64,000 nucleotides of DNA from assembly GCA_964654485.1 (NCBI GenBank), contig CAZZJI010000004.1, positions 1,104-65,103 of the forward strand, in the 5' to 3' direction. A model generated the notes under the pieces. That model worked only from the letters and a program-made list of their open reading frames with translations, ran no database searches and had not been told where the DNA came from. Of the stretch, positions 44,952 to 64,000 are shown piece after piece (position 1 is the first letter of the stretch; every line of letters starts with the position of its first letter). The position numbers and the translations under genes were made by a program. Origin of the DNA: an uncultured Gammaproteobacteria bacterium (GTDB taxonomy: Bacteria; Pseudomonadota; Gammaproteobacteria; SG8-11).

Positions 44952-45006
44952 CATTGTTTCATAACACCAAATTACAAAAATCAAACCCCAAACACCAAGG
45001 GAAATT

Positions 45007-45891: not shown

Positions 45892-45897
45892 ATTCGT

Positions 45898-46728: not shown

Positions 46729-46770
46729 AATTACTCGGCGTAGAAAACAAACCCTACGAAGACAGTAAAT

Positions 46771-47700
46771 TTATTTTGTTCTTGCCACACGAAACCCGAC
46801 TGTACTCCACGCTTCGTGCGGCAGTATTACGCCTCTATTTGCAGATCGCATATCTACAATAAAATTATACCAGGAACCACCGCGGATAACCCTTACGCCT
46901 TCATCAAGCCCTTTATTTGAACTAACCAGCTCACTACCGTCATAGAACCCCACATAGTCTGACGCGACCCACTCCCAAACATTTCCGCTAACATCATATA
47001 ACCCGAATGGGTTCGCTAAATAGCTGCCCACAGGCACGGTCTCAACTGTACGCCAATGCGCAAAAAAAAACCGACACCTGGCTTGTTGGCAATCGCCGCT
47101 GTTACCGTTACCCCACCAGTAGCTCGTTTCAGTGCCACCACGAGCGGCATACTCCCATTCCGCTTCCGTTGGCAAACGGTATTGCTTTTCTGTTTGCTGA
47201 CTTAACCAATTGATATATGCAATTGCATCACCCCAGGACACACAAACAACCGGGTGATTATCCTTCTGCCGAAAAAGAGGATTATACCATGCGGCTTCTT
47301 TTTGCTCATGCCACACGACTTTGCGTGCAATGCAACCATCGTTCAACTCGGCTCTTGTTCGATAACCGGTTTTTTCCACAAACAATCGAAATTCTGCCAC
47401 CGTCGTTTCATATTTCGCTAACGCAAAGGGCTGTGACATTTTCACCGAGCGAATAGGCTCTTCATCGCCATCTGTCTGGTCGCTACTAATGTTCCCCATA
47501 CGAAAAATACCTGATGGTATCCACACCATTTCAGGCCCCTGCAGCCCTATATTTAACTTATCTCTAAATACAGAACCGGTATCCGCATCCCAAACAATTT
47601 TTACTGTCGTGCAGGCCGTATTTAACGAGAAAAAGACACATAATTGGAGAATTAAATAACATTTATTGAATAAATTTCCAAGCGTGAATATCTTCTCCAT
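46771..47700 (-). CDS. FGE-sulfatase (SUMF1-like) domain protein, secreted. It is the last gene of the long minus-strand array.
   Basis: 309 aa. The signature is MVWIPSGIFRMGN...GNVWEWVAS...RGGSW...VGFRVA. Confidence 0.8.
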   Translation of the reverse strand: MEKIFTLGNLFNKCYLILQLCVFFSLNTACTTVKIVWDADTGSVFRDKLNIGLQGPEMVWIPSGIFRMGNISSDQTDGDEEPIRSVKMSQPFALAKYETTVAEFRLFVEKTGYRTRAELNDGCIARKVVWHEQKEAAWYNPLFRQKDNHPVVCVSWGDAIAYINWLSQQTEKQYRLPTEAEWEYAARGGTETSYWWGNGNSGDCQQARCRFFFAHWRTVETVPVGSYLANPFGLYDVSGNVWEWVASDYVGFYDGSELVSSNKGLDEGVRVIRGGSWYNFIVDMRSANRGVILPHEAWSTVGFRVARTK

Positions 47701-47763
47701 ACTGGACTACCTTGTCATCACATTCAATTCGCAAAAACGACAAAGGATTATAAAAATGCCAAA

Positions 47764-49192: not shown

Positions 49193-51310
49193 TTATTGCT
49201 TAATTTCGGACGTCATCACCAATGCGACTGGTTTCGGCCCGGTATTTATTTCACCCACACGCTGCAAGTCACCATTTACTTTATTTAATCTAAAAATCAT
49301 AATGTTTCTTGAACCTTCATTTATGACATAGACATAATCCCCTGCAGGGCCAATAACAATATCGACCGGATCTTTACCCACAATCACTTTTTTAGAATTC
49401 TTTTTTATCAACCCAGTGGTAGTATCTACCTGATAAATAGAGACAGAACCAGATCCTTTATTTACCACGTAAATAAAGGATCCATCATGCGTTAGAGCGA
49501 TAGACACCGGTTCTTTTTCTGTCATCGTCGACCCTTCCAAGCTACGTAAACCTCCAGACTGAACATGTATTTCATAAGCCGTCAGTGTATTTGATTCTGC
49601 AGAAACAACATATGCGTACCGTCCATTGGGGTCAATCGCCATCGCATTAGCTCCATTTTTTATTTCGACAGGTGAACCAAACTCACTTGCAATCACCAAA
49701 GGTCCATCGTCATAATAATTAAAAAATGAAATATCGTTTGTTAGCGCATTTATAATATACGAATTACGCGCAGACGGATGTAATAATAACTTACTAGGTT
49801 GGCGTTCTAGTTTATATGGGGACGCGTAATACAGCCCGGTTTGTTTTAGCTCCGTTAAAGAACCGTTAGTCGCATCTATTTCAAAAACAGACATCGTGTT
49901 CGATTTAGAATTTAATGTGTAGACATATCTCCCATTGTAATCAACTGCAATTGAGTGGGGCTGTTCGCCAGTTCGATATGGCGAACCAGCAATTTCCTTT
50001 AATTTGCCGTCACGTCGGTTAATCATAAAAGCGGAGATGGTGTTTGATTTTAAATTGGCTACATATAAAAATCGATTTAGTGGATCCAGAGCAAGGGATT
50101 CCGGTGCCAAACCAGTTTTTGCTTTGGCAATTGACTTAAGCGCCCCTGTTTTATTATTAACTTTATATACACTAACCGAATCTGAATCAAAATCGGCCAG
50201 GTAAGCAAAACGTGAGGAAAATTCTACTGGCTTATCACCCATAACAAATGCAATTGACCGGGGACCAGAACGTGCCATTGTGGTCTCACCGATAGACAAT
50301 ACACCCGTTTGCTGGTTCACGGAATAAACCGTGACATGATTACTATCATAATTTGTAACAAAGGCAAAATTCCCGCCCGACTCTACTTCTACTTGAACAT
50401 TCAGACTTCCTACATTGACAAACGGTGAACCGGGGATAGGCATTAACTCACCCGTGAGCATATCGATGGAGAAACCATATGTGCCGCCAAACCAGTTTGC
50501 AACATAGAGAAATTTCCCATTCGGATGAATGGTTAAACCAAAGGGGAATACCCCCTCGCCCAATGGCAAAATATGTTTTTCCAGCAAAGCGCCACTGTCA
50601 TTGTTTATTTCAAATACGATAATTTCCCTACTATTCCAACTGCTCACAAAGGCATACTTACCCGCAGAATGTACTTTTATATACTGCGGTGCGTCTCCTG
50701 CGATAAAGGGTGAACCAGGTATATTGCTCAGTTCACCCGTTGTGCTATTCACGCGATACCCAGACACAGTGTCATCGTTGATATTCGTCATATACACGAA
50801 TCGGTCAGAGGGATGAACCGCAACAGAACGCGGTAAATACCCGCCGGGATAAGGTGACCCCTTAACTAAACTTAATGCACCGGTCTGAGAATCAATTTCC
50901 ATTACAGCAACAGCGTTGGAATTTCTACCCGCGATATATAAATATTCCCCATCTTTGTCTAATGCTGACCAAAAAGGAGAAACCACTTGCGGATCAAAAG
51001 GCGAACCCGGGAGTTCTATCAATCTCCCGGTTGAATGATTAACGCTAAACGCAGAAACTTTCATTCCAGTCTGCTCAGTAACGTAAACAAAACGACCACT
51101 AGGGTGGGCAACAACAGATGAAGGAAATCTGCCGGTGTCCACATGACCATTGTGACGTAACCGACCGGTAACACTGTCTACTGTGTACATCGAAACAGTA
51201 CTGTCATAGGCGTTTACGACATAAGCAAATTTAGGCACCACTGCATTAGCGAGCTGATATTCAAACAACACCGACAGCAAAACAATACTAGATAAACTTG
51301 ATAATCGCAT
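49193..51310 (-). CDS. Secreted tandem (double) 7-bladed beta-propeller of the lactonase / YVTN-like family
   Basis: 705 aa with a signal peptide. It has about 14 repeats of the .Y(V/I).N..S..VSV(F/Y)..(D/N)..TG.L type (YVVNAYDSTVSMYTVDSVTGRL, LYIAGRNSNAVAVMEIDSQTGAL, LYVANLKSNTISAFMINRRDGKL and others). Confidence 0.7.
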   Translation of the reverse strand: MRLSSLSSIVLLSVLFEYQLANAVVPKFAYVVNAYDSTVSMYTVDSVTGRLRHNGHVDTGRFPSSVVAHPSGRFVYVTEQTGMKVSAFSVNHSTGRLIELPGSPFDPQVVSPFWSALDKDGEYLYIAGRNSNAVAVMEIDSQTGALSLVKGSPYPGGYLPRSVAVHPSDRFVYMTNINDDTVSGYRVNSTTGELSNIPGSPFIAGDAPQYIKVHSAGKYAFVSSWNSREIIVFEINNDSGALLEKHILPLGEGVFPFGLTIHPNGKFLYVANWFGGTYGFSIDMLTGELMPIPGSPFVNVGSLNVQVEVESGGNFAFVTNYDSNHVTVYSVNQQTGVLSIGETTMARSGPRSIAFVMGDKPVEFSSRFAYLADFDSDSVSVYKVNNKTGALKSIAKAKTGLAPESLALDPLNRFLYVANLKSNTISAFMINRRDGKLKEIAGSPYRTGEQPHSIAVDYNGRYVYTLNSKSNTMSVFEIDATNGSLTELKQTGLYYASPYKLERQPSKLLLHPSARNSYIINALTNDISFFNYYDDGPLVIASEFGSPVEIKNGANAMAIDPNGRYAYVVSAESNTLTAYEIHVQSGGLRSLEGSTMTEKEPVSIALTHDGSFIYVVNKGSGSVSIYQVDTTTGLIKKNSKKVIVGKDPVDIVIGPAGDYVYVINEGSRNIMIFRLNKVNGDLQRVGEINTGPKPVALVMTSEIKQ

Positions 51311-51466: not shown

Positions 51467-54265
51467 TTACGGCACATTAGTACACGCCTCACTACTCATC
51501 GCCATCCAAAACACACCCGTAGCCCCGTTACCTGGCGCTCCGACTGAACCACAATTGGCTACCGTCCAGTTACCACTGAGTGCAAAACTAGTGACCTTTA
51601 ATACAGCTCTATTATAATAGGGACCATTAAAATACCCTGCTCTACCATCACCTGCGGGACCATTTCGAACCTGGACGCCCGATCTGTTAAATCCACCTTC
51701 AAATCCAACGTCATTTAGATTGACAAGAAAAGCCTTGTTTTTCCAACCATGCGGGACTGCAATATGACATAAATTACAGCGAAAGTTTGACACAGCATTC
51801 GCATGAAAAGTATGTAAATTCTGCGTATTCGGCATACACATCATTCCACCGCCACCACCGCTCATACGACCGCCGCCCATGCCGCCGCCGCCCATGCCAC
51901 CGCCGCCCATCATACACATACCACCACCACCACCCAGTGAAAACCCACTATTTTGAGGAAAAGCCGGTGACGGATTGCCGTATTGATTATATCGATGGCA
52001 TTTAAAACATAAATGCGTTGGCTGGCCGATACCGGTTCCGGTTGTGCGTCCACCACTCCACGGACCTTTTAACAGAAAATCATTCTCTGAACCATGCGGT
52101 CCCCAGACACGTCCATCATCACCTGCACCACCACCGCCGGTATTGCCCGTTGGAACTGATGTGCCGTTGTTGGTATCAGAACCATGGCAATCCGTGCAAT
52201 ACATGGTTTGCACACCCACAGCCAGATTAAACGGTGAGGTCCAATTGAGTTGGTTTGCATCACGAATCGCAGGTGTTCTGCCGGTGGACCTAACAACCGG
52301 ATGCCAACTACGATGATTGTTTATAGCAAATGCAGCGCCAGCGCCACTGTTAGGGGCGGTGCCTTCACCCTGATGTTCGACAGGAGAATTATATTCGCTC
52401 GCCTGATTGGTGTACTGCGTCATTTCGTTAGTACCAGATGGGGTACCACCGACAAATGAACCCAACATCGGCGGTGTATTGCCATACGCATAATTTGAGT
52501 GACACTTAAAACAAACCTGGTACTCGCGTGTTACGTAAGGGCTGGAGGTACCATCGTCACCGGGTGGCGCATCAATCGGTGGGCTGCCTCTTTTAATCGC
52601 GAAAGTAATCTGCGCATTAGGAACAGCATTAAAATTGGGGCCTGCGTAAATGGGTTCGACGCCCCATATACCCCTTAAAACACCGGAAGCGACATTAGTA
52701 TGCATTCTAACACCTCCAACAACTGCAAGGTCCGCGTCATTATGCGGGTGTGTGCCCGCTGGACCGGGATTAGCTGGGTCAGCGTTAAATAAACGATTTT
52801 TGATCACGCGGTGCGGATTATGGCAATCGGTACATTCGGCATGTCGATTAGCCAAACGCGTTTGGCTCTCGATAAAATCTTTACCGGCCTGCGGGATGCC
52901 GGGTGCATCACCTATATTGTGAACCTCTTCTGGACTATTCACCCCGAGAGACTGGTCGTCGGTGGTAATCGGCATGCGTGTTGCCAATGTAGTAAAGTCA
53001 GTTTTAATATCCGGCACTTCTGTACCAAGACCTTGGGCGGTTAATGTATTACCATCTGATGAGTGACAGGCGTAACAAGTTTGTTCAATCGCAGGTCGGC
53101 CACCCTGTTTAACCAGGTAACCACCAACAGAAACAGTAGGTCCATCTGTGCCTTCGCGCGTCAGACGTCGTGCACCCTGTACAGTGTGAGTATCATGGCA
53201 TGCAAGACAAGCCGATTCCCATGTTCGTGTACCCAATGGGAATTCTCGTACATTGGCCGCCGCATCCGTGTATATCTCATCAGCGACATCAGGATTAGCA
53301 TGTGCAGAATCAACCCAACCTGCTTTGAGGTGACAGGCAATACAGATAATATCGGCGTTAGTTCCGACGGGTGTACCTGGATTAAACCCAACATCCGCAG
53401 GTCGAGTCGATTGCAATCGGCTCAAACGTAAAAACTTAATATTCTGCTCTAATGTATCATCTCGAATATGCGGATCATGGCAGGTATTACATTGAACCTG
53501 CCCTTGCCCACCAGAATCATCCTGTAGAGGAACGATAGGCGCTGGTTGCCCACGAACCCGGGTACCAAGATGTGACTCTACTGCCGGGTCACGCATTTCA
53601 CCGTCTGCTGCCGCGAGCGCACTATCATACGTCATCGAAATGGGGTGATCATTTGTCAAATCAGTGCCAAGAAAACGAGTAAAACCAGAAAGCCGCCCAC
53701 TGGGGCCTTCAGCGATGGCACCACCCGCAATGGTGCCCGTCATCGCTATATCCTCTGTGGTACCGATTCGATCAGTAAAACGACCTTCAAATACATTGAC
53801 CGCGCCCACAGCCATTGTGCCATCATGGCACGACAGACACAGTTTCGAGATACCTGTCGGTTGTTGTAATGGCTGGCCCGGGCCAATCGCCGAATCCAGC
53901 GATCCTGAACTATAGGTAGGATACTGCGCACCAGATAATTCGCGGTTCCACAATGGACCCTCACTTACCGTGCCACCATGCGGGGCATGGCAAAAAACAC
54001 AAATTTGATTTTCTGTTACTGCCGAGACAACTCGACTTGCCCCCCCAGGCAGTTTTGGAGCAAAATCCGCAGAAAAATTATGTTTGGTATTGGAAATGTC
54101 AGAGATTCGCGCTGCGTGCGCATCAATTGAAAAAGTGGGTACGATACAAATAGCCGCCGTATAGACTAAAATCGCAGTTAATAAAACCGGGAAATATCCA
54201 TTGAAATAAGCATTTAGCTTGGCGCCGCCATAGGAAGAACGACTAAAAATCTTGCACACCCTCAT
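51467..54265 (-). CDS. Giant 11-heme c-type cytochrome (doubled-CXXCH family N-terminus) with a Met/Gly-rich insert
   Basis: 932 aa with an N-terminal TM/signal segment and 11 CXXCH motifs (CVFCH, CLSCH, CNTCH, CIACH, CLACH, CYACH, CTDCH x2, CFKCH x2, CNLCH). The N-terminus shares the HNF...C.FCH.PH / LCLSCHDGT module with the pentaheme paralogs. The insert is GGGGGMCMMGGGGMGGGGMGGGRMSGGGGGMMCM. Confidence 0.85.
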   Translation of the reverse strand: MRVCKIFSRSSYGGAKLNAYFNGYFPVLLTAILVYTAAICIVPTFSIDAHAARISDISNTKHNFSADFAPKLPGGASRVVSAVTENQICVFCHAPHGGTVSEGPLWNRELSGAQYPTYSSGSLDSAIGPGQPLQQPTGISKLCLSCHDGTMAVGAVNVFEGRFTDRIGTTEDIAMTGTIAGGAIAEGPSGRLSGFTRFLGTDLTNDHPISMTYDSALAAADGEMRDPAVESHLGTRVRGQPAPIVPLQDDSGGQGQVQCNTCHDPHIRDDTLEQNIKFLRLSRLQSTRPADVGFNPGTPVGTNADIICIACHLKAGWVDSAHANPDVADEIYTDAAANVREFPLGTRTWESACLACHDTHTVQGARRLTREGTDGPTVSVGGYLVKQGGRPAIEQTCYACHSSDGNTLTAQGLGTEVPDIKTDFTTLATRMPITTDDQSLGVNSPEEVHNIGDAPGIPQAGKDFIESQTRLANRHAECTDCHNPHRVIKNRLFNADPANPGPAGTHPHNDADLAVVGGVRMHTNVASGVLRGIWGVEPIYAGPNFNAVPNAQITFAIKRGSPPIDAPPGDDGTSSPYVTREYQVCFKCHSNYAYGNTPPMLGSFVGGTPSGTNEMTQYTNQASEYNSPVEHQGEGTAPNSGAGAAFAINNHRSWHPVVRSTGRTPAIRDANQLNWTSPFNLAVGVQTMYCTDCHGSDTNNGTSVPTGNTGGGGAGDDGRVWGPHGSENDFLLKGPWSGGRTTGTGIGQPTHLCFKCHRYNQYGNPSPAFPQNSGFSLGGGGGMCMMGGGGMGGGGMGGGRMSGGGGGMMCMPNTQNLHTFHANAVSNFRCNLCHIAVPHGWKNKAFLVNLNDVGFEGGFNRSGVQVRNGPAGDGRAGYFNGPYYNRAVLKVTSFALSGNWTVANCGSVGAPGNGATGVFWMAMSSEACTNVP
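51836..51934. repeat. Imperfect 15-bp tandem repeat (catgccgccgccgcc-type units) that encodes the Met/Gly-rich insert of the 11-heme cytochrome
   Basis: Read directly on the plus strand: ...catacgaccgccgcccatgccgccgccgcccatgccaccgccgcccatcat... Confidence 0.75.
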
Positions 54266-54556: not shown

Positions 54557-55654
54557 TCATCCTGGATTATTCAAATATTGTAAAACCACAATACGTCCGT
54601 TGAACATATCTGCAACATAAATACGGTCTTGGGAATCAGACCACACACCTGCTGGCAGGTAAAATTGGCCTATACCCGAACCTGTTCCACCAACCGGAAG
54701 CAGAAATTCTCCCGAATTATTATATACTAGCAAATAATCATAGTAGGATTCTACAACGTAAATAAGGCCTTGATCATCGACCGAAATTCCCTTTGGTCGC
54801 AGCAAATCCCCTATATTTAAGCTACGTTTACCAAATTTACTAACAAAATCCCCGTCCTTATCAAAAATTTGGATCCGCGCATTCATAGAATCAGTCACAT
54901 ACAGTTGCCCCTTATAATAACTGATAAAAGTAGGGAAATTAAACTCACCGGAGCGAACGCCGCGCTGCCCGATGACACTGAGCAGTTCACCGGAATCATC
55001 AAATATCTTTATATTGTGGGCGTGGGTATCTGAGACATAGATACGACCAAATCGCGCGTCTCGAGCCAGACCCGTCGGCCGTTTAAGAAGCCCTCTACCG
55101 AATTGTCCTAACGGTATTCCGTTGCTATCCAACCTAACGACGACGCCTAGTTCAGCATCCGCAACATAAACCTCACCGTCTTTGCCTGGTACGATGCCGA
55201 TTGGCGCAAGAAAATTGCTGCCATCTTCTGAATCAGCCTTTTCCCAGATATTCAACTCGCCCAGTTTATCATCAAATACAAATACGGCCTGCCGACTAAT
55301 GTCTGTTACATAAATACGTTTGCGCTTTTCATCAACAAAACCAGTTTGCGGCCGTTGTAAAACAACTTTTTGAGACGGCTGTGAATCTATGCCAACAAAC
55401 CACTTTACAAACCGCATAAAGACACCGTCCTCTTCGGGCTTTTTATAAAAATTATTTTCCCCGGTCAACTGCCCTATATATTTATAGCGCGGCATTTCCG
55501 GTTCGGACGGCCATACCTTGGAATCATCAACTCGATAACGTAATTCACCCCGTGTATCCGCACAACTGGAGAGAAAAACTGTAAAAACAAGAAAAATGAG
55601 TAGCGAGGAAATTCGTTTATTTAACATTATTCTTGTCACAAATAGTTTATACAA
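54557..55654 (-). CDS. NHL-repeat six-bladed beta-propeller lipoprotein
   Basis: 365 aa. The lipobox is LSSCADT. The blades are IYVTDISRQAVFVFD, VYVADAELGVVVRLD, IYVSDTHAHNIKIFD, LYVTDSMNARIQIFD, IYVVESYYDYLLVYN and IYVADMFNGRIVVLQ. Confidence 0.85.
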   Translation of the reverse strand: MYKLFVTRIMLNKRISSLLIFLVFTVFLSSCADTRGELRYRVDDSKVWPSEPEMPRYKYIGQLTGENNFYKKPEEDGVFMRFVKWFVGIDSQPSQKVVLQRPQTGFVDEKRKRIYVTDISRQAVFVFDDKLGELNIWEKADSEDGSNFLAPIGIVPGKDGEVYVADAELGVVVRLDSNGIPLGQFGRGLLKRPTGLARDARFGRIYVSDTHAHNIKIFDDSGELLSVIGQRGVRSGEFNFPTFISYYKGQLYVTDSMNARIQIFDKDGDFVSKFGKRSLNIGDLLRPKGISVDDQGLIYVVESYYDYLLVYNNSGEFLLPVGGTGSGIGQFYLPAGVWSDSQDRIYVADMFNGRIVVLQYLNNPG

Positions 55655-55705: not shown

Positions 55706-56824
55706 TTACTGAACTTTAAAAAGATTCTGATCTAATCCGTCTTCCGGAACCACATCGAAAACCTGCACCCGTCTATTTAAGCTATCAGCAACATATAATT
55801 GCTGCTCTTTTGACATCCACATATCAGTAATCGATCGAAAACGACCTGGCGCTGAACCGCTACCCCCTAGCGTCGCGATGAGTCTGATATCATCATAAAC
55901 TCTGATTGTGTTATCGGATTTATCGCTAACATAGACACGCTGTTCCTTATCCAATGCAATCGCGGTTGGCCAGATCAAATCGCCTTCACCCAGACTAAAT
56001 CTGAATCGTCCGGCTGCGCCAGGATCCAATCCCAATTCTTGCACGGGTAACTCAAGACGGTCAGCTATAAAAATACTATTACTTCTTCCTTTCGCTATTG
56101 CAGTAATCGCACGAAATTTTCCTGGTCCCGTTCCACGTGATCCAACGGCACTTAATGGAATACCTAATTTGCTAAATATCACTACGTGACTGAAACTACC
56201 ATCGGCCACATACACTTGACCCGTTAAATCATCAACCATAACATCGATTGGCCGCGATAAATTTACCAGATCACTGTACTGGCGAATTAAATTGCCCAAT
56301 TCATCAAAATACAAAACACGCTTGCCAACTGGGTCCGTTATATAAAAACTCAAATCGGATTCAACGTAAATACTCGTCGGCTCACCTTTAAGCTGCTGGC
56401 CAGCGACACCGAGAACTTCTATCGTTTCGTCAACAGTATTATATCGATAAATAGAAGAGTCACCGCCATCAACGATGTAAAGAAAATTACCGTAACCACC
56501 AACCGCGACGGGTTTTATAAATTTAACTTGCTGACCATCACCACCAACAATAATGCGAGTAAATTCGCCAACCGCACCGTCCAGCTTTAACTTACCACCG
56601 CGTATAATACCTGATGGTCTCAAGACTTCCGGCTCATCACTGCGTTTAAAACGAAGATTTGGCGACGTAGCTGCTGCTGCGGATCCGTCCTCAGATGACT
56701 GTTCACCATCTGTAACTGCTTTTTTAAATTCCGCTAAAGTACAACCAGTAGTTGCCCCAATGAACAAAAAAATTAAACTGGCAATAACGATCAGCAACGG
56801 CGTCAACGTACGTCCAGTTAACAT
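55706..56824 (-). CDS. NHL-repeat beta-propeller lipoprotein. The probable start is the Met at about 56824; the ORF-track start at 56893 overlaps the upstream gene.
   Basis: The lipobox is LFIGATTGC. The blades are LYIVDGGDSSIYRYN, FYITDPVGKRVLYFD, VYVADGSFSHVVIFS, IFIADRLELPVQ, VYVSDKSDNTIRVYD and LYVADSLNRRVQVFD. Confidence 0.8.
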   Translation of the reverse strand: MLTGRTLTPLLIVIASLIFLFIGATTGCTLAEFKKAVTDGEQSSEDGSAAAATSPNLRFKRSDEPEVLRPSGIIRGGKLKLDGAVGEFTRIIVGGDGQQVKFIKPVAVGGYGNFLYIVDGGDSSIYRYNTVDETIEVLGVAGQQLKGEPTSIYVESDLSFYITDPVGKRVLYFDELGNLIRQYSDLVNLSRPIDVMVDDLTGQVYVADGSFSHVVIFSKLGIPLSAVGSRGTGPGKFRAITAIAKGRSNSIFIADRLELPVQELGLDPGAAGRFRFSLGEGDLIWPTAIALDKEQRVYVSDKSDNTIRVYDDIRLIATLGGSGSAPGRFRSITDMWMSKEQQLYVADSLNRRVQVFDVVPEDGLDQNLFKVQ

Positions 56825-56829
56825 TATCC

Positions 56830-56870
56830 TGGTTAGCGAAGACCTACGCCTGATTAGCGAAGACCTACGC
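56830..56870. repeat. 20-bp tandem duplication (ttagcgaagacctacgc x2) covering the stop codon of the triheme cytochrome gene and the 5' UTR of the NHL gene
   Basis: Read directly as ggttagcgaagacctacgcctgattagcgaagacctacgctttcg. The second copy contains the TAA stop of the 56854-57495 gene. Confidence 0.8.
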
Positions 56871-57495
56871 TTTCGCGCGGAACACTGTGACATCGATTAC
56901 ACTCCAATGGAGGAAAGGCGACTTTGCCATGGCACACACCACAATATTCACCTTCAATTATTGCCGCCATAGTGACAAAATTACCGCCACGTTGCGGTAA
57001 AAATATTCCAGGATGGCAGTTTTTGCATGTGAGCCATTTAGTATGCGGTAAATGAGGAAATCGAACATAAGGCATAGACGCGGTATTTCGAAAAATAACA
57101 TCAAAATCCACTGAATGCATTTTCTCTTCACCAGTGATGCCGGTGCGCGGTGAAATCAGGCCTTTGTTCAGTGTTTCTACCCAATTTATGACACCACGTT
57201 TATCACGCGGGAAATTAGCCATCGCTTCAGCTGGCGGTTGCAAGATCTTAACTGCATCATTTGTTGGATCATGCACACCATCTTCAGCGATCGAAACGAC
57301 ATCCCCATGTAATTGAAAATGACCCGTGCCTTCTTCGCCAATGGCCGGGCCAAATACAAACATACACACTGTAAAAAACAATGTTGATATATACCTATAT
57401 ACAACCATACCCTTTCTCGCGCCCATTAATTCGACTTCATTCACCCATCGTGTTGTATAAAATCTTTTTGCCCTTTTACTATATATGCCATACAC
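56854..57495 (-). CDS. Small triheme c-type cytochrome, secreted (paralog family A)
   Basis: 213 aa with a signal peptide. The heme motifs are CKNCHPGIFLPQR, CGVCHGKVAFP and CNRCHS. The HTKWLTC..CHP..F.PQR..N..TMAAI..GE.CGVCHGKV.FP...C..CHS pattern is shared with the genes at 59613 and 60321. Confidence 0.85.
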   Translation of the reverse strand: MYGIYSKRAKRFYTTRWVNEVELMGARKGMVVYRYISTLFFTVCMFVFGPAIGEEGTGHFQLHGDVVSIAEDGVHDPTNDAVKILQPPAEAMANFPRDKRGVINWVETLNKGLISPRTGITGEEKMHSVDFDVIFRNTASMPYVRFPHLPHTKWLTCKNCHPGIFLPQRGGNFVTMAAIIEGEYCGVCHGKVAFPPLECNRCHSVPRESVGLR

Positions 57496-57621: not shown

Positions 57622-59190
57622 CTACTGACTTACCCCTGCTATGCGCAATGCACGCCTGACTTGGGTTGTAGCCGACAACATCATCGCAATAGCTGTTGGA
57701 AAATCACCTTGCTTTGCTTTTTTAATTGCATCATCGCGCTGACTTCTTCCTTTCACAACGAATCCATCCATAAGTTTCACGGCACCCGGCGCTGGTTTTT
57801 TCCTGGCAATGGCGACAGGTACTAATTCTTCATAACCGGCAAATCGCTTTAATTCATATTGATATTCTTCTTCTGCCGTTTCAAAATTCAGATCATATAC
57901 AATTGTTTGGGAATCAAGCATAACATTGATCGCACTAGTCACGATATTTTCTGCTTTTTCTAACAAAGGAATCGCCTTTAAGTATTTACGTGTATCAGCA
58001 AATGTCTTCGCTTCTTGTAGCAAAGATGTGACTTCTTTTTTGTCGTAATCAACCACTGCCTGTTTGCCACGTGTTTTAACCGTTTGATCCTTGCTTATCT
58101 TATGCGATTGCTCAAAGTTCTTTACAGAATCAAGCAATTCCATATACCGGGCATTTCTTTCCTCTAAGACCTCTTCGCTTGGCACTAACCTGGATGACGT
58201 ACCAATCAAGCGTAATACATCATCTGCAAAAGCCAACGCTTTCTCATTATCACCGGAAGAAAGGTGCTTGCGCGCTTTACCCATTTTTTCCCTAGCCGAA
58301 TTCAACATATTTTTTGCTTCTTTATTATTACTTGCATCTACGCGCTTGGTACCTTTAGACACAAGCATCATGTCAGCAAACGTCATTTTCTGCTTAAGCT
58401 TTGCGATAGAAACTTTCGCTTTTGTTGCTTTCGAGGACTTACCTGCACTTGCTGTAGAAATCTTAACACTCGCAATTAATTTATTGATTTTCGCTTCAGA
58501 TGCATCCTTGTTGACGACAAATATCTTGCCCCCCATTGCGCTGTGGTTTTGACATTGATAATAAATGACATCCGGCATCTTATTGTCAGGCGTTATTTCT
58601 ATTATACCTTTGTAGGTAAACTGCCCCTTAATCCCATCTATAACCACACCGCCACCCCAGCCTACTGGACTCGTGGAAAAATAAACGTCATGCAATACAT
58701 CAGTTCGGACATCAAATTGATAGCGTTCACCACGTCGCATGGCGATTGTTTTTCCTTGCACATCATCCAATGAAAAACCTAATATATGCCCTTTGCCAAA
58801 TGAAGGATGTGATTCATTTTTTTCCGCCACGGTGACTATATAATAATTCGGATCCAATTTTTTGGACGACACATCAGGTTTTTTTGCTTCCGCTGGCTTA
58901 TCAACGGGCGCGGGTTGAATCTCTGAAGTGACATCGGCGGGCATTTCTGTTACTTCGGGAATAGTCGTAATCGGCAACGGCTGCACCATTACAATGGGTT
59001 CATCCGGGGAAACATCATCTTCCTTCGCTTTTGCCTGTTGTTCTTTTTCTTTAGCTGAGGGTTCAACCGGAGCTTCAATGATAGTTGCTGACTGCTCGGC
59101 GGGCATCTGTTCGTTTTTATCGAGCGAGCCGCACGCGGGCACAAAAAGAAAGACTATGAAAAAAAGGGTAAATTTAATGTTCGAGTTCAT
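57622..59190 (-). CDS. Lipoprotein with an amicyanin/plastocyanin-like cupredoxin domain (predicted type 1 copper site) plus a long C-terminal helical domain of unknown function
   Basis: 522 aa. The lipobox is FVPACGS. A Pro/Glu-rich linker follows. The cupredoxin signature is GKGHILGF...YYQCQNHSAMGGKIFVV, with Cys-x2-His-x2-Met spacing as in amicyanin. Confidence 0.55.
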   Translation of the reverse strand: MNSNIKFTLFFIVFLFVPACGSLDKNEQMPAEQSATIIEAPVEPSAKEKEQQAKAKEDDVSPDEPIVMVQPLPITTIPEVTEMPADVTSEIQPAPVDKPAEAKKPDVSSKKLDPNYYIVTVAEKNESHPSFGKGHILGFSLDDVQGKTIAMRRGERYQFDVRTDVLHDVYFSTSPVGWGGGVVIDGIKGQFTYKGIIEITPDNKMPDVIYYQCQNHSAMGGKIFVVNKDASEAKINKLIASVKISTASAGKSSKATKAKVSIAKLKQKMTFADMMLVSKGTKRVDASNNKEAKNMLNSAREKMGKARKHLSSGDNEKALAFADDVLRLIGTSSRLVPSEEVLEERNARYMELLDSVKNFEQSHKISKDQTVKTRGKQAVVDYDKKEVTSLLQEAKTFADTRKYLKAIPLLEKAENIVTSAINVMLDSQTIVYDLNFETAEEEYQYELKRFAGYEELVPVAIARKKPAPGAVKLMDGFVVKGRSQRDDAIKKAKQGDFPTAIAMMLSATTQVRRALRIAGVSQ

Positions 59191-59612: not shown

Positions 59613-60305
59613 TTACCTCCAGGGGTTTTTAACACTCGCCTGACTCAAAGGTGGTTTCCAATTTTTTGGTTTGGGTTTGGAATGGCATTTTTTGCACGAC
59701 TTAGTGGTAACCGGAAAAGACACTTTACCGTGACACACGCCGCATTTTTCACCCAAAAGTATTGCAGACATCGTTATCTGGTTCGCATTTCTTTGTGGAA
59801 TGAAAATCTTTGGGTGGCAATTGGAACAATGCAACCATTGTGTATGCGGTTTGTGTGGAAAAACCACATCCGGCATGGATGCTTTTACTTCACGCACAAT
59901 GTCTAAATCCATAATAAGTGGCTCAACGGTAGGATCTATACGATCATAGCGAGGCTTCAAATAGCCCTTGTCGAGTGATTGCACCCAATCGACGTAATTA
60001 CCAAATGGCGTCGTTGGTAAGCCTTTGTAAGATATTTTCGGCGGTTGCAGCACATGCGTACCTTCATTAGCCGGATCATGAATACCGTCCTCCGCTGGCG
60101 GTGCATTTTTTTCCTTATCCTTTTTAAGCAGGCGATTAAAAACATTCGCCTTGGTCACATTGCCGCTTTGACCTTGAACGGGCTTTAATTTCATCGTTTT
60201 CTTTGTTGCACCGACTTCAGCCGCGTAAACATTCGCCATAGCAAATGTTAAACCAAACGCACAAACGGTACAGGCAGCCGCTAACAACCTATTGATTTTA
60301 TTCAT
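59613..60305 (-). CDS. Small triheme c-type cytochrome, secreted (paralog family A)
   Basis: 230 aa with a signal peptide. The heme motifs are CSNCHPKIFIPQR, CGVCHGKVSFP and CKKCHS. Confidence 0.85.
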   Translation of the reverse strand: MNKINRLLAAACTVCAFGLTFAMANVYAAEVGATKKTMKLKPVQGQSGNVTKANVFNRLLKKDKEKNAPPAEDGIHDPANEGTHVLQPPKISYKGLPTTPFGNYVDWVQSLDKGYLKPRYDRIDPTVEPLIMDLDIVREVKASMPDVVFPHKPHTQWLHCSNCHPKIFIPQRNANQITMSAILLGEKCGVCHGKVSFPVTTKSCKKCHSKPKPKNWKPPLSQASVKNPWR

Positions 60306-60320
60306 TTTTATTTCATCCCC

Positions 60321-60764
60321 TTATTGCGCGCTCTTTACACCACCTGGCAGCGCTTTATACTGTGGCGCGACTAAACGTTGAATCGTACTCCCGTGGATCT
60401 GTGTCGGTGTTCCAGGAATGCCCGAGTGACACATTCCACAGTTTTCCACGGACCAGGCAATTTCACCGTTATGACAGGCGCCGCAAAATTGGCCGTCAAT
60501 AATTTTAGCCATCGTGATCTTGTTTCCACCTGCTTTAAATTTAAACCCGAGATCGGCATGGCATACTTTGCAGCGAAATCTAATACGATGATACCAATGC
60601 GGAAATACGGCGGGTCGCATACCTGCGGCATCAGCATAATTATTTATTACTACATCCGCGTACTCTGCCTGTGCAGATTGTGGGATCATTATGACGCTAA
60701 GACTGCTTATTAAAGCAAATAAAATTGCCTTCCATTTCACGAGATATTCCAAAAGTGATCTCAT
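60321..60764 (-). CDS. Small triheme c-type cytochrome, secreted (shorter member of paralog family A)
   Basis: 147 aa with a signal peptide. The heme motifs are CKVCHADLGF, CGACHNGEIAW and CGMCHSG. Confidence 0.85.
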   Translation of the reverse strand: MRSLLEYLVKWKAILFALISSLSVIMIPQSAQAEYADVVINNYADAAGMRPAVFPHWYHRIRFRCKVCHADLGFKFKAGGNKITMAKIIDGQFCGACHNGEIAWSVENCGMCHSGIPGTPTQIHGSTIQRLVAPQYKALPGGVKSAQ

Positions 60765-60875: not shown

Positions 60876-62765
60876 CTAGAAGCTTCGTGTAGCCGAAAAG
60901 TTAACACCAAGCGTCCTTTCTCCTTCAGGAGCTTCAGTTATTCGGATATTAAGCTTGGTTGATAATAAACCAATTGCGTAGGAAAATGAATTTACCCAGG
61001 TTAGATTCCCTCTTTGTGAATCTCCATCTGCTAACAACCTTTCTTGTCTTAATGTCGAGGCATAAGTTAACGCAAATACACCAAATAACCGACTATGGCG
61101 GTAGGCAAACCGGATAGAAGCAGATTCTTCTGTATCTGAGGCCCCAGGTTCGATCGTCAAGGGATTGTCAGTTTTAGAAGCTTGATAATTAAAATTTCCG
61201 GATGCTGAACTAAGACGATTTATCCCCTGATTTCGGGCTAGTGAGAGTGAAGCTAATTGAAATACTACCCCGTCCTCTTCGAGTGTCCGTGAGTCAGAAA
61301 CAGCAACGTTGAAAATTGTGTTGCCACCCCAACCCAGGTGATTCACGCTGGTATTAAAACTTATAGAATGTGCTTTAGTCAGCTCGTCTGTTTCTGTATC
61401 CTCCGTGGATAAAGTCGAATCATTGTCATCTGGAAAACGTTTTGAAACGGCTAAATTTTCTGAAAAACCAAAATTTAAATTTCCACTGTCGAATAGCCAG
61501 GATCTGCTCGCGGCATGACCAATTGACACACTGGCGCTTTGACTACTGGTTTTCGTGTCCTCTACGGGGGGGACTGCAGCCGGATTGCCGTCCAGTTTAC
61601 TATTTGCATTACTGACACTACCGCTCAAGTTCCAGTTATAAAAAAAATCAAAAATGGTCGTCGGGGAGGAAAAAAAACCGATTGTTCCAATTTCGGAGGA
61701 ATTAAGTGACTGCCTACCTTCAGATTCACTTGAATTAGCATTAATCGTTAAATTACCACGTATTTGGCGAGAAAATATATACGACATCGTTAAACCGATG
61801 CCTACCGCACTAGTCTCGACACTGTCCCGAACGCTATTGTCGGTCGTCGTTTTGGAAAAACGCGCACCACCTGACACGGAATAGGGTTTATGCTCAGGTC
61901 GCCAAGAGGCGCTTGTGGACACCTGATTAACCGACGACTCACTACCAGAACCGCCCACCGATTCCGATTTAGACGTGGAATGGCTGAATAATGAAGTAAT
62001 CCCCATTTCTGCACTTGGTAAATACCCGTGCGTCGCGGTTAACGATAAGCTTGTGGAATTATTACCAACATCCTGTTGTTCTGTATCAATATAACTACTA
62101 TCAATACTATAACGCTGTTTAGCCCAGGATCGATTAACGCGTAACCCGGCAATGCTGGATAGAAAATTGCTAAACAATGACTCGAAATCAGATCGATTAT
62201 AGAAAAAATTGATATGCGTACGATCATATGTTGTATACGCCTGTGATATCCCTATGCGTCTGGTCTTGGTTATCAGCGTCGTGGATAACAAACCTTCCTC
62301 TGCATTTGATATACTTTCTGACTCATTTCGACTAAGCGCATAGGTTAATCGAAAAGGAAAGCGACTTAGTGGGAAAACCGCAAACGCCAGATTAACAGTA
62401 TTGGATGTAAAATTACTCTCAGGCGCGTTACTACTGGTGCTCTCACTTGTTGCCAGCCCGAAACCCAACCCTGCTGACATAGTGGCAAACCACGGTCGCC
62501 AAATAGCGCTGTTACCAGCGACATTAACCCTGATCAAATTAACTTCTGATTCCCGATTATTGGTTTTATTAAAACTGTATGTATAACCTATACTTCCGCT
62601 TAAATTTAAACCGTAGGGATCATAAAATTCAGCTCGAGCGGACGTTTGCCCAATCAAGAGCAAGGACAGCCCCAAAAAGCACAATTGAAAAAATTTCGAA
62701 TTCCTCAGTACGGGCTTGTTTACTATCACTACTCCAAACACTCCCCAAAGCGGTTGCCAATACAC
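60876..62765 (-). CDS. Large putative outer-membrane beta-barrel protein (porin-like), secreted
   Basis: 629 aa with a signal peptide (FLGLSLLLIGQTSARA). It has an amphipathic alternating pattern, is rich in Ser, Thr, Asn and Gly, and has the C-terminal aromatic residue (…ATRSF) typical of OMP beta-barrels. Confidence 0.55.
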   Translation of the reverse strand: MYWQPLWGVFGVVIVNKPVLRNSKFFQLCFLGLSLLLIGQTSARAEFYDPYGLNLSGSIGYTYSFNKTNNRESEVNLIRVNVAGNSAIWRPWFATMSAGLGFGLATSESTSSNAPESNFTSNTVNLAFAVFPLSRFPFRLTYALSRNESESISNAEEGLLSTTLITKTRRIGISQAYTTYDRTHINFFYNRSDFESLFSNFLSSIAGLRVNRSWAKQRYSIDSSYIDTEQQDVGNNSTSLSLTATHGYLPSAEMGITSLFSHSTSKSESVGGSGSESSVNQVSTSASWRPEHKPYSVSGGARFSKTTTDNSVRDSVETSAVGIGLTMSYIFSRQIRGNLTINANSSESEGRQSLNSSEIGTIGFFSSPTTIFDFFYNWNLSGSVSNANSKLDGNPAAVPPVEDTKTSSQSASVSIGHAASRSWLFDSGNLNFGFSENLAVSKRFPDDNDSTLSTEDTETDELTKAHSISFNTSVNHLGWGGNTIFNVAVSDSRTLEEDGVVFQLASLSLARNQGINRLSSASGNFNYQASKTDNPLTIEPGASDTEESASIRFAYRHSRLFGVFALTYASTLRQERLLADGDSQRGNLTWVNSFSYAIGLLSTKLNIRITEAPEGERTLGVNFSATRSF

Positions 62766-63186
62766 AAAGTCCTTTTAAAAAAGCAAAATTAAAACTGTGC
62801 CTTGCCGCTTACATTCATTTTATCTTTGGGTCTTTTGAACAGCCAACTTTCTTATATAGATAATAAATACAGTTACTCTAAATAATACGTCGCCAGAACA
62901 AAGTATACGTAACCCGGAACACCCTCAAAAACAAACCCGGGAATGATCAAGAATCTGTCCCAGGAAACTTAATATTGGCTTATTAGTTAATATTTATATA
63001 CTAATTCCACACCAACTAATCGTAAGAAAAAACATCAAATAAGTAAAAAAATCTTCGCATACAAATGATTACAATACATATGATTATTATATTAAATTAC
63101 ATAATATAGCAACGCACAACAACATGCTCGATAAATAAACAGTTCGGCGAATAAATGAGTGCGATATTAAAAAGTCGTCACTTAGG

Positions 63187-64000
63187 CTACTTCTGCACAA
63201 CCTTATATACTGACTTATCCACATCTATTTTTGTCTCAGATCTGAGTTTTTTTATCAAATCCACCCAGGCTTTTTGCCCACGCTCGCGCTTAACAAGGCC
63301 TATTACGGTATCTTTAACCCGCTCATAGCTGTTGATCGTGATTGCTATACGTTCATCAAGCCTGAAAATAGCCACGCCCTGCAGGATAACAACAGGCTCT
63401 GAGACATCTCCAGGATCCATAATATCGATAATTTCTTGTGCTGGCTTAGCGAGCATACCCTTATGTATGTAACCCATATCTCCGCCTTGTGGAGCCGAAT
63501 CATCACCGGAGTGAATTCGCGCCATTTCAGCAAAGTCGGCACCATTTCTTAATTGCGCCACCAATTCATTGGCTTGTTCCGTCGTATCTCGCCATACCTG
63601 ACTGCCTGACGAAGGATCTACTTTTAATAAAATTGTGAAAACGCGCAATTGCTCTGGAATCGTAAATTTATCAGGATTATTTTCAAAGTGAGCCTGAAGA
63701 TCTTTTTCTTGCGGAGGACCGACTTCCTTAACCTTTTTCTCCAGTAGCTTAATCAAGCTATCATGTTCATATTCTTCCCGAATGCCAGGTAAAAGTAGAT
63801 CTCTGTTCTGCTCCCAATTTTTGTCGTTTTCTTTTTTTCTTTTCGCTTCAAATCTCTCAATCTTATTATCAACCACCTCTTTATCTGGTTTAATACCCTG
63901 TCGTTTCGCTTCCCGAACCAATAAAACCCGGTTGATATATTCTTGTCCTACCTGTTCACGAAATTGTTCCATTTCTTTGTCAGGCACTTTTGCGTGAAAA
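63187..64000 (-). CDS. SurA/PpiD-like periplasmic chaperone with a parvulin-type PPIase domain. The N-terminus runs off the window end.
   Basis: The parvulin signature is GGDMGYIHKGMLAKPAQEIIDIMDPGDVSEPVVILQGVAIFRLDER. The frame stays open past the GTG at 63985-63987 to position 64000. Confidence 0.65.
   Translation of the reverse strand, partial: FHAKVPDKEMEQFREQVGQEYINRVLLVREAKRQGIKPDKEVVDNKIERFEAKRKKENDKNWEQNRDLLLPGIREEYEHDSLIKLLEKKVKEVGPPQEKDLQAHFENNPDKFTIPEQLRVFTILLKVDPSSGSQVWRDTTEQANELVAQLRNGADFAEMARIHSGDDSAPQGGDMGYIHKGMLAKPAQEIIDIMDPGDVSEPVVILQGVAIFRLDERIAITINSYERVKDTVIGLVKRERGQKAWVDLIKKLRSETKIDVDKSVYKVVQK

Follow-up and report, generated by a model that had tools for sequence, protein, structure and literature searches.

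The 64,000-nucleotide stretch analysed here (the window) ends in a run of minus-strand genes encoding, in order, a peptidyl-prolyl isomerase (PPIase), a large barrel-type protein, two c7-type triheme cytochromes, a 522-aa lipoprotein, a third c7 cytochrome, two NHL-repeat propellers and an 11-heme cytochrome (Table 1). A tetraheme cytochrome gene lies just past the window end, upstream of the PPIase gene (locus L001), giving all ten genes of uetABCDEFGHIJ in order, a cluster published from Ca. Tenderia electrophaga and the Tenderiales (bioRxiv 10.1101/2022.05.06.490989; cited as mSphere 2022). Named for "undecaheme electron transfer", this extracellular electron-uptake cluster was described as comprising a tetraheme, a PPIase, the barrel UetC, two trihemes, a cupredoxin, a third triheme, two NHL propellers and an undecaheme; the localisations given in that description are predictions and place the trihemes in the periplasm (10.1101/2022.05.06.490989). 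The published UetC is approximately 600 aa long with 28 strands predicted by PRED-TMBB2, and its authors propose it as a cytochrome-sheathing, MtrAB-like barrel whose occupant is left unnamed (10.1101/2022.05.06.490989).

Because gene content and order match uetA to uetJ one for one, the 629-aa barrel protein of the window is probably an orthologue of UetC, the link to the Ca. Tenderia electrophaga protein (ALP54624.1) being drawn from synteny. The locus is already described in the literature: the system is known, the role of UetC is a published hypothesis, and the window adds nothing new in kind. The same gene order was found in Leptothrix sp. BB-4 and in about 40 further loci from Gamma- and Betaproteobacteria, with UetC placed between the PPIase UetB and the c7 triheme UetD as in the published cluster; uetB is missing from eight otherwise complete loci that retain uetC. 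The initial annotation of this DNA had read a chaperone, porin and cytochrome order here, and that order is present, but it covers only part of a conserved cluster with at least ten genes. UetC homologues from Leptothrix were also recovered; this genus had been named as an outlier carrier of the cluster (10.1101/2022.05.06.490989), and Gallionella has also been reported to carry it.

Table 1. Features of the uet cluster and its downstream neighbour, with positions in the window.
Feature	Position	Strand	Basis
UetB-like periplasmic PPIase, SurA_N-like region and one parvulin domain	63187..63987	-	Pfam Rotamase 2.2e-15
uetB-uetC intergenic spacer, 420 bp, AT-rich	62766..63186		sequence inspection
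UetC, predicted 28-strand outer-membrane beta-barrel without plug domain	60876..62765	-	AF2, Foldseek, neighbourhood
UetD, c7-type triheme cytochrome, 147 aa	60321..60764	-	Cytochrome_C7 3.3e-15, TIGR04257 5.6e-18, 3 CxxCH
UetE, c7-type triheme cytochrome, 230 aa, c7 domain C-terminal	59613..60305	-	Cytochrome_C7 3.3e-11, TIGR04257 1.6e-17, 3 CxxCH
UetF, 522-aa probable lipoprotein (..FVPAC↓GS)	57622..59190	-	position of published UetF "cupredoxin"
UetG, c7-type triheme cytochrome, 213 aa, UetE paralogue	56854..57495	-	Cytochrome_C7 1.1e-10, TIGR04257 7.3e-17, 3 CxxCH
UetH, NHL-repeat beta-propeller	55706..56893	-	Pfam NHL 8.9e-12, DUF5128 6-bladed propeller
UetI, NHL-repeat beta-propeller lipoprotein (..FLSSC↓AD)	54557..55654	-	Pfam NHL 8.8e-25, DUF5128 5.9e-19, lipobox
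UetJ, undecaheme cytochrome, 932 aa	51467..54265	-	11 CxxCH
Secreted lactonase-type 7-bladed propeller protein, 705 aa, directly after uetJ	49193..51310	-	Pfam Lactonase 8.3e-87

The 5′ end of uetB is cut by the window edge; the full gene encodes 361-378 aa in locus L001. The Pfam SurA_N_3 match of UetB is weak (5e-4, below cut-off), and its NCBIfam matches of PpiD, PrsA and SurA type all fall far below cut-off. The spacer between uetB and uetC gave no promoter or terminator matches above shuffle expectation. The small cytochromes that the initial annotation placed downstream of the barrel are UetD and UetE, both of which lie outside the stretch it covered. UetF contains a cupredoxin-like stretch (LHDVYF ... 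YYQCQNHSAMGGKIFVV), a motif read by eye, followed by a helical C-terminal half; Pfam and PDB sequence searches returned no match for it, and its position is conserved across the approximately 40 loci. The true start of uetH is probably later than that of the ORF, which overlaps uetG. UetJ carries 11 CxxCH motifs here and in 32/32 full-length homologues, along with a Gly/Met-rich tract at residues 778-812.

The uetC ORF comprises 629 codons counted from the GTG at 62765. In-frame GTG codons at 62741 and 62729 are equally plausible starts, and the closest homologues start at the position equivalent to 62729; the mature protein is identical under all three. The signal peptide consists of a K/R-rich n-region, the hydrophobic core FFQLCFLGLSLLLIG and the cleavage motif ARA↓EF, ending at A45 to leave a mature chain of 584 aa (E46-F629). 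This chain is 17% Ser and 33.7% Ser, Thr and Asn combined, contains no Cys, and ends in ...ATRSF, with the C-terminal Phe kept in 91% of the family (n=78). The signal peptide, the Ser/Thr/Asn richness and the terminal Phe had all been called in the initial annotation and hold. The sole Cys of the precursor, C29, is not conserved and has no lipobox context, so that a lipobox placing the protein in the periplasm is absent. Longer homologues bear N-terminal extensions of Pro/Ala-rich low-complexity sequence, in which no informative fused domain was found.

The UetC family comprises at least 873 representatives at 50% identity by full HMM scan, which rejects the idea of a rare family; the 13-14 matches returned by word-indexed search under-report it. 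A Pfam and NCBIfam search with UetC gave no family at E<=0.1, leaving its members systematically annotated as "hypothetical". Two homologues (P0008 and P0165) do carry the UniRef label "TIGR03016 PEP-CTERM system-associated OMP", and such names would suit an outer-membrane protein for general diffusion or with a link to polysaccharides, placed beside cytochromes by coincidence. TIGR03016 was matched by 0/78 family members at E<=0.01, nor by the query, the other NCBIfam outer-membrane-protein models likewise gave none at this threshold, and UetC keeps a fixed position in about 40 loci that span two classes of Proteobacteria; we consider a coincidental neighbour highly improbable. A Cyc2-type fusion of cytochrome and porin is ruled out by the presence of CxxCH in 0/174 family sequences and by the Cys-free mature protein.

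AlphaFold2 (AF2) modelling of UetC with 13 sequences gave pLDDT 80 and pTM 0.54, rising with 78 sequences to pLDDT 90.5 and pTM 0.72, with all five models near 90; both runs agree on the same 28 long strands. These strands, 11-22 residues in length, and the short loops between them account for all 584 mature residues in the model, which leaves no plug domain. The barrel diameter is 49-56 Å by geometric estimate, closure and lumen size being judged from DSSP, pTM and geometry. Foldseek matches of the model are large outer-membrane barrels only, the best being MtrB (6r2q_B; E 3.9e-9, TM-score 0.33, identity 9%); ushers and LptD are also among them (TM-scores 0.20-0.40) and share no sequence similarity with UetC. 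Hydrophobic alternation, noted in the initial annotation, shows no excess over whole predicted strands (1.16 vs 1.19 shuffled) but does appear when the best window of 9 residues is taken from each strand (1.50 vs 1.28±0.10, reached in 12/1000 shuffles) and in the family-averaged profile (1.51 vs 0.92±0.07, reached in 0/1000 shuffles). UetC is therefore confidently predicted to be a large outer-membrane beta-barrel, as first proposed, and model and structural matches alike give a barrel rather than a soluble beta-helix or adhesin. Sequence conservation is concentrated at one end of this model: 35/48 highly conserved positions sit in the turns facing the periplasm or in the third of a strand nearest to it, and mean conservation is 0.49 on the periplasmic side vs 0.33 elsewhere (Mann-Whitney p 9e-15). 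Outer-membrane proteins are generally more conserved on the periplasmic side, however, and this pattern is not specific to docking.

The comparison with MtrB, PioB and MtoB made in the initial annotation holds for the large size of the barrel, with the 28 strands of UetC exceeding the 26 of MtrB, and finds no support as a statement of family membership: UetC has no Pfam MtrB_PioB or NCBIfam match and structural TM-scores are only 0.33-0.40. No MtrA/DmsE-type decaheme is found next to UetC, its neighbours being c7 trihemes and OmcE-like cytochromes; the DmsE model TIGR03508 is matched by UetJ only, at 28 bits vs a cut-off of 192. A classical porin-cytochrome complex would nevertheless place one or more of the trihemes UetD, UetE and UetG inside UetC, like MtrA in MtrB, to exchange electrons with an extracellular cytochrome. 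The trihemes lie directly downstream of UetC in every Uet-type locus and rank with the most strongly expressed genes of Ca. Tenderia, MtrB is the best Foldseek match of UetC, and the MtrAB-like proposal of the uet authors is compatible with this arrangement (10.1101/2022.05.06.490989). The c7 domain, however, is approximately 70 residues long with three hemes, against ten hemes in MtrA, and a single such domain is probably too short for a barrel with 11-22-residue strands; the same authors also predict the trihemes to be periplasmic (10.1101/2022.05.06.490989), and the OmcE-type clusters of other lineages described below keep a barrel in the same slot without trihemes. We regard a triheme-filled barrel as unlikely.

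This cluster can also be related to the filament-forming cytochrome OmcE. UetA matches the OmcE filament structures 7tfs (E 3.8e-17) and 9yuq (E 1e-18) and retains four CxxCH motifs with four more conserved His residues, identifying it by sequence as a homologue of this nanowire subunit. The N-terminal region of UetJ, approximately 315 residues long, forms an OmcE/UetA-like tetraheme module (7tfs, E 9.3e-18) and is paralogous to UetA (31% identity, E 1e-27) across all four heme motifs. A protein search with UetA is dominated by its closer homologues (7815/8000 candidates), and Geobacter-type omcE loci were reached with an OmcE fragment rebuilt from the PDB alignment and scanned against metagenome contigs. 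In these loci an ORF of approximately 750 aa, barrel-like in character, directly follows OmcE and an NHL propeller, and neither a c7 triheme nor a PPIase is present in those examined; further lineages have a 550-680-aa ORF with a terminal Phe in the barrel slot beside OmcE-like genes. The literature likewise describes omcE clusters as always including a large beta-barrel "putatively functioning as a secretion or anchor". Since an OmcE-like cytochrome, an NHL propeller and a barrel recur across lineages without trihemes, we take these three as the invariant set.

Whether the barrels themselves are related was addressed with profile comparisons. The UetC profile aligns with an intermediate barrel group (Prob 96.7%), including the motifs IWxPWF and FPxSRFPF, and this group aligns with the Geobacter-type barrel (Prob 96.5%), with reversed-profile controls at <=1.1%; the two alignments that make this bridge do not lie in the same half of the proteins. 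When UetC is compared directly with the Geobacter-type barrel by hhalign, the alignment is neither colinear nor significant (Prob 17.9%, E 1.3e-3). Treating the two barrels as the same module is thus partly an analogy.

A rival reading is a pore used for secretion only, in which UetC would export folded UetA and/or UetJ, with UetB acting as a chaperone and assembly assisted by the NHL propellers, and would stand outside the steady-state electron path. This parallels the roles proposed for the Geobacter OmcS companion cluster (folding by the PPIase OscH, secretion by the channel-like OscEFG and morphology by the propeller OscD), and it accords with the "secretion or anchor" role suggested for omcE-cluster barrels and with the requirement for a PPIase in OmcZ nanowire expression. 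Set against this, an empty, plugless 28-strand pore would be a severe leak after export, UetC has neither a plug nor usher-like domains at its termini, and a route for electrons through the outer membrane is still needed in a cluster without a second barrel gene. Such a role outside the electron path seems to us improbable.

In the model we favour, UetC would be the pore that sheathes or anchors an OmcE-like heme wire, and the trihemes would act as relays in the periplasm. UetC would be exported by Sec and inserted by Bam via its C-terminal ...RSF signal, forming a plugless barrel of 28 strands joined by short loops, with a C-alpha to C-alpha diameter of approximately 5 nm. A pore of such size cannot stay open, so that a partner would have to occupy the lumen, and this occupant may be an OmcE-like heme-wire module, either the tetraheme UetA (predicted to be extracellular, and perhaps forming the base of a polymer), the N-terminal module of UetJ that resembles UetA, or both. 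A continuous heme chain could then cross the outer membrane within UetC, while UetD, UetE, UetG and the putative cupredoxin lipoprotein UetF would carry electrons across the periplasm and dock onto the periplasmic rim of UetC, which is strongly conserved. The combination of a UetC orthologue, an OmcE-like module in its lumen and relay roles for the trihemes and UetF has, in our estimate, an even chance of being correct. By analogy with the carrier organisms, which include electroautotrophs and iron oxidisers among the Gamma- and Betaproteobacteria, electron flow is probably inward.

The PPIase UetB and the NHL propellers UetH and UetI may aid folding, threading or holding of the cytochromes. 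UetB need not be the chaperone of UetC, because the adjacent PPIase within Geobacter nanowire clusters is assigned to cytochrome folding, and because the eight loci noted above keep UetC without UetB; the SurA-like chaperone of the initial annotation survives as a parvulin domain with a weak SurA_N-like match that need not serve the barrel. Its trans-outer-membrane conduit agrees with the sheathed-cytochrome hypothesis of the uet authors, yet the trihemes it placed there are the least likely occupants of the lumen, since the OmcE-type clusters of other phyla have the barrel and no trihemes.

A bolder version of the sheath or anchor model, which we put forward tentatively and consider possible rather than probable, would make uet the proteobacterial electron-uptake counterpart of Geobacter OmcE nanowires. 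UetC would be an usher-like pore on which a UetA filament is assembled and kept mounted, and UetJ, with its OmcE-like module and seven extra hemes, would be the specialised end subunit, found either within the barrel, at the base of the filament, or at a tip in contact with minerals. If so, cytochrome nanowires that have an assembly pore of their own in the outer membrane would occur widely among aerobic bacteria that oxidise iron, manganese or cathodes, and the pair of barrel and OmcE-like cytochrome would be an ancient module common to several phyla.

The literature acknowledges as an open question how multiheme cytochromes and cytochrome nanowires traverse the outer membrane and remain fixed to it, and uet is the main candidate electron-uptake route in the uncultured cathode-oxidising Tenderiales, some Gallionella and Leptothrix. 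This re-analysis connects the cluster with the structurally solved OmcE filament family, identifies a UetA-like module inside UetJ, and finds a large barrel travelling with OmcE-like genes in several lineages. Together these yield a testable model of the barrel as a heme-wire sheath or anchor, for which the culturable Leptothrix offers a place to test it.

Compared with known systems, UetC resembles MtrB, MtoB and PioB in its prediction as a large outer-membrane barrel without its own plug, encoded beside multiheme cytochrome genes, and the sheathing of a cytochrome in a barrel, as in MtrCAB-type complexes, is the same idea proposed for UetC. LptD-LptE offers the analogy of a 26-strand barrel plugged by a partner lipoprotein. 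The ushers PapC and FimD offer that of a large barrel where a polymer is assembled and stays mounted, although, unlike UetC, they are 24-stranded, carry a plug inside the barrel and have periplasmic domains at both termini; under the nanowire interpretation UetJ would likewise be comparable to the two-domain tip adhesins of chaperone-usher pili. The omcE clusters of Desulfuromonadia (e.g., locus L054) share with uet an OmcE-like tetraheme and NHL propeller lipoproteins beside a large barrel, and their barrel, like UetC, has a signal peptide and a C-terminal Phe; unlike uet, clusters with the longer Geobacter-type barrel lack c7 trihemes, a cupredoxin and an undecaheme. An adjacent PPIase is common to uet and to the osc and omcZ clusters. 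The closest counterpart is the uet cluster of Ca. Tenderia itself. There uetJ is followed by ccsAB (system II cytochrome c maturation), which is absent from this place in the window, where the 705-aa propeller, a HemN-like radical-SAM gene and FGE-sulfatase paralogues are found instead. The propeller gene adjoins uetJ in six related loci and is likely a lineage-specific extension of the cluster; ResB/CcsA genes follow uetJ in loci L005, L051 and L052, and the ccsAB trait belongs to the extended uet module rather than to UetC itself. All ten uet genes, their neighbours and order, the size of UetC and its 28-strand prediction are shared between Ca. Tenderia and this locus.

UetC is a secreted 28-strand barrel with neither a plug domain nor a heme motif, and lies within a cytochrome-rich cluster. 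The signal peptide proposed in the initial annotation comprises a basic n-region, a hydrophobic core (FFQLCFLGLSLLLIG) and an ARA-EF junction after residue 45. The lipobox that would have placed the protein in the periplasm was not found in UetC, whose sole Cys is unconserved and lies in the hydrophobic core, outside any lipobox context. The start may be GTG 62741 or 62729 in place of 62765; the nearest homologues begin at the 62729 position. The predicted Ser/Thr/Asn richness and C-terminal Phe are both borne out: Ser makes up 17% and Ser+Thr+Asn 33.7% of the mature protein, which contains no Cys and ends in ...ATRSF, the terminal Phe being retained in 91% of a 78-member alignment. The proposed alternation of hydrophobic residues stands in part: UetC shows no detectable dyad alternation across whole predicted strands. 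Within membrane-length windows the alternation can be detected, with 12 shuffles in 1000 reaching the observed value, and the family-averaged profile shows it strongly (0 of 1000).

Two AlphaFold2 runs returned the same UetC topology, with 28 long strands that are antiparallel and span residues 53/54-628, in agreement with the large barrel (possibly 20-plus strands) first suggested. The model built on 13 sequences reached a pLDDT of 80 and a pTM of 0.54, and that built on 78 diverse sequences a pLDDT of 90.5 and a pTM of 0.72, with all five models near 90. Extracellular loops span 2-17 residues and periplasmic turns 2-8, and no residue stretch remains to make a plug domain. Foldseek searches of the PDB with the predicted structure returned large outer-membrane barrels only, led by MtrB (E 3.9e-9) and including TonB-dependent transporters, LptD and PapC/FimD, and not the soluble beta-helix or adhesin that had been considered as an alternative. 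With TM-scores of 0.2-0.4 and identities of 6-13%, this result confirms the fold class of the model and assigns no family. Closure between strands 1 and 28 is probable, judging from the pTM and the Foldseek list, and standard barrel geometry gives a 28-strand C-alpha diameter of ~49-56 A.

Every gene in the uet region of the window lies on the minus strand (see table). The chaperone described as SurA-like is a parvulin-type peptidyl-prolyl isomerase (PPIase) in which the SurA_N-like region is weak. The trihemes noted after the barrel are present, and all three in the window score above the curated threshold of the 'c(7)-type cytochrome triheme domain' model, TIGR04257. A 356-aa tetraheme, UetA, lies upstream of the PPIase just past the window end, on a longer contig of the same organism (L001).

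Features of the uet region, its surroundings and two comparison loci (window coordinates unless a locus is named)
Feature	Coordinates	Strand
UetA tetraheme	L001:7295-8365	
Parvulin-type PPIase (UetB position), cut by window edge	63987..63187	-
AT-rich spacer, 420 bp	63186..62766	
UetC ORF, 629 codons	62765..60876	-
c7-type triheme cytochrome, 147 aa (UetD position)	60764..60321	-
c7-type triheme cytochrome, 230 aa (UetE position)	60305..59613	-
Probable lipoprotein, 522 aa, no family match (UetF position)	59190..57622	-
Third c7 triheme, 213 aa (UetG position)	57495..56854	-
NHL beta-propeller (UetH position)	56893..55706	-
NHL beta-propeller (UetI position)	55654..54557	-
Cytochrome, 932 aa, 11 CxxCH motifs (UetJ position)	54265..51467	-
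Secreted lactonase-type 7-bladed propeller protein, 705 aa, directly after uetJ	49193-51310	-
HemN-like radical-SAM gene beside FGE-sulfatase genes	47764-49173	-
FGE-sulfatase genes	43836-44951, 45007-45891, 45898-46728; 46771-47700	+; -
Barrel-like ORF, 746 aa, after OmcE	L054:10178-12418	

This arrangement corresponds to the published electron-uptake cluster uetABCDEFGHIJ of Ca. Tenderia electrophaga and the Tenderiales, which comprises UetA (tetraheme), UetB (PPIase), UetC (a barrel, likewise predicted with 28 strands), UetD and UetE (trihemes), UetF (cupredoxin), UetG (triheme), UetH and UetI (NHL proteins) and UetJ (undecaheme), with Leptothrix as an outlier carrier (bioRxiv 10.1101/2022.05.06.490989). 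Some Gallionella have since been reported to carry the cluster, and in Tenderia on the cathode the trihemes rank with the genes of highest expression. Given that the genes correspond one for one in their order and that Leptothrix connects the two, the window protein is very probably the UetC orthologue. The locus agrees with the published cluster in predicted strand count and gene order and differs downstream, where Tenderia and Leptothrix carry ccsAB/resB after uetJ as part of the extended module and the window carries the 705-aa propeller protein, also found there in six related loci (L017, L018, L020, L026, L034 and L043).

No Pfam or NCBIfam model matches UetC. Word-indexed protein searches recovered only 13-14 relatives. 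A full HMM scan started from an alignment of the first 13 found at least 873 representatives (clusters at 50% identity), of which 598 fall below 1e-30, so that the family is widespread, though without a model. K-mer prefilters badly under-sample serine-rich, low-complexity barrels, which can give such a family a false look of rarity. Every UetC homologue with a retrieved neighbourhood lies in one common cluster, ordered (NHL), tetraheme, PPIase, barrel, c7, c7, a ~520-aa protein (or two of ~300 aa), c7, NHL, NHL and a ~900-aa 11-heme cytochrome, often followed by ResB/CcsA. This order recurs in a hydrothermal-vent gammaproteobacterium (UetC 32% identity), two more MAGs (24-26%), Leptothrix sp. 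BB-4 and one other genome, and is essentially invariant across a table of ~40 loci. An unrelated porin beside the cytochromes is highly improbable against this constancy. A genome scan with the motif IWxPWFAT identified 43 species-level genomes, all uncultured Gammaproteobacteria (Chromatiales, Ectothiorhodospiraceae, Porticoccus).

Variation within the family was also observed. UetC homologues of 700-890 aa (P0075, P0134-P0136, P0157; L101, L104, L108, L129) carry Pro/Ala-rich N-terminal extensions of 150-300 residues with repeated (L/P)RLKLA-like motifs, in which no heme motif or recognisable domain was found. Eight otherwise complete loci (L021, L025, L027, L029, L032, L033, L035, L050) have no UetB detected between uetA and uetC, so that one clade either does without a dedicated isomerase or encodes it at another site. 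The probable lipoprotein UetF (FVPAC-GS) has a long helical half at its C-terminus, and its LHDVYF...YYQCQNHSAMGGKIFVV is similar to the ligand pattern His...Cys-x2-His-x2-Met found in type-1 copper (cupredoxin) proteins; in betaproteobacterial loci uetF is split into two genes of ~300 aa. Near the uet cluster, the window holds four paralogous FGE-sulfatase (SUMF1-like) genes within 43836-49173; neither these nor the HemN-like gene adjoin the cluster in other loci. Elsewhere lie a 484-aa protein containing three cytochrome c domains of class-I/cbb3 type (16269-17723, minus strand) and three propeller proteins in a row, one Kelch and two Reg_prop (22080-26122, minus strand).

UetA matches the filament structure of the Geobacter sulfurreducens nanowire cytochrome OmcE (7tfs, E 3.8e-17) and, with E 1e-18, the 16-chain entry 9yuq ('putative multiheme cytochrome'), presumably bundled Desulfuromonas OmcE. 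It retains four CxxCH motifs and four further His (H67, H102, H210, H316), three of them invariant and H102 present in six of seven sequences, the pattern described as conserved among OmcE homologues. By sequence, UetA is an OmcE homologue. Residues 1-~315 of UetJ align end to end with UetA across the four heme motifs (31% identity, E 1e-27) and also match 7tfs, so that UetJ, whose N-terminal third is a UetA paralogue, looks like an OmcE-like module fused to seven further hemes; each of the 32 full-length UetJ homologues has exactly 11 CxxCH. Residues 778-812 of UetJ (~window 51830-51934) form a low-complexity tract rich in Gly and Met (GGGGGMCMMGGGGMGGGGMGGGRMSGGGGGMMCMP), which coincides with a local GC rise; like tracts occur in only a few close homologues, near the C-terminus. 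The Met-rich character of the UetJ tract suggests that it may bind metal.

A scan of metagenome contigs with an OmcE fragment recovered Geobacter-type loci. One such locus, L054 (75% identity to OmcE), reads ResB, CcsA-type, two multiheme cytochromes, NHL, OmcE, a 746-aa ORF and then glycosyltransferases, as omcE clusters have been described in the literature. Its 746-aa ORF carries a signal peptide, ends in Phe and belongs to its own family of ~20 members. In other lineages a 547-680-aa ORF ending in Phe lies directly 3' of an OmcE-like gene or PPIase. What stays constant across lineages is thus a trio of OmcE-like cytochrome, NHL propeller and large barrel; c7 trihemes and PPIase are both absent from Geobacter-type omcE loci. 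The barrel-like ORFs form at least three sequence groups, of ~750 aa (Geobacter type; L053-L079, L105), 580-680 aa (L088, L089, L102, L103) and 547-560 aa (L125, L128), the last matching neither UetC nor the Geobacter-type family. No significant match emerges when the UetC profile is compared directly with that of the Geobacter-type family (Prob 18%, E 1.3e-3), and the alignment is not colinear. The intermediate 580-680-aa group aligns colinearly with UetC (Prob 96.7%), pairing IWxPWF with ILWDPRF and FPLSRFPF with FPSRPFPL, and also matches the Geobacter-type family (Prob 96.5%; reversed-profile controls at most 1.1%). A remote shared ancestor is plausible, though the evidence falls short of establishing it, since the two bridging alignments lie in different halves of the proteins.

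A pore as wide as UetC could not stay open, so a partner would have to fill the lumen. The version that follows the initial annotation, with trihemes in the lumen, is unlikely, as the barrel tracks OmcE-like genes across lineages, not trihemes. Since OmcE is experimentally an extracellular filament, the most economical model, given about an even chance, makes UetC the sheath and anchor of an OmcE-like heme-wire module whose heme chain would cross the membrane inside the barrel. A pore for secretion only would leave such a wide lumen without a resident partner, and is as doubtful as the triheme version. In the sheath model, the wire would be UetA (monomer or polymer base) and/or the UetJ N-terminal module, the trihemes and the cupredoxin lipoprotein UetF would relay electrons in the periplasm, and UetB with the NHL propellers would help in folding, threading or retention. 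Comparable roles have been proposed for OscH, OscEFG and OscD of the Geobacter OmcS companion cluster, and a PPIase is required for OmcZ. Electron flow would be inward, by analogy with known uet carriers. Of 48 highly conserved UetC positions, 35 lie at the periplasmic rim (Mann-Whitney p 9e-15), where WxPWF (turn 1), SRFPF (turn 2), HxYxP, WRP (turn 6) and RxF (turn 12) occur. This fits a docking ring but is weak evidence for one, because a better-conserved periplasmic side is common to outer-membrane proteins at large.

The locus represents a published cluster and a published hypothesis found again; what is new is an unannotated UetC member from an uncultured gammaproteobacterium. The tie between UetA and OmcE, with the UetA-like module in UetJ, sharpens a question about UetC that is addressable in culturable Leptothrix. 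Among known systems, membership of MtrB/PioB/MtoB was rejected on the lack of a family-model match, the lack of a decaheme partner and a different strand count, and that of TIGR03016 was rejected despite UniRef labels on two homologues. A Cyc2-type fused cytochrome-porin was rejected on the Cys-free mature protein and on CxxCH being found in 0 of 174 family sequences. Chaperone-usher ushers and LptD/LptE resemble UetC by analogy only. The window protein works like the UetC family, of which it is almost certainly a member.
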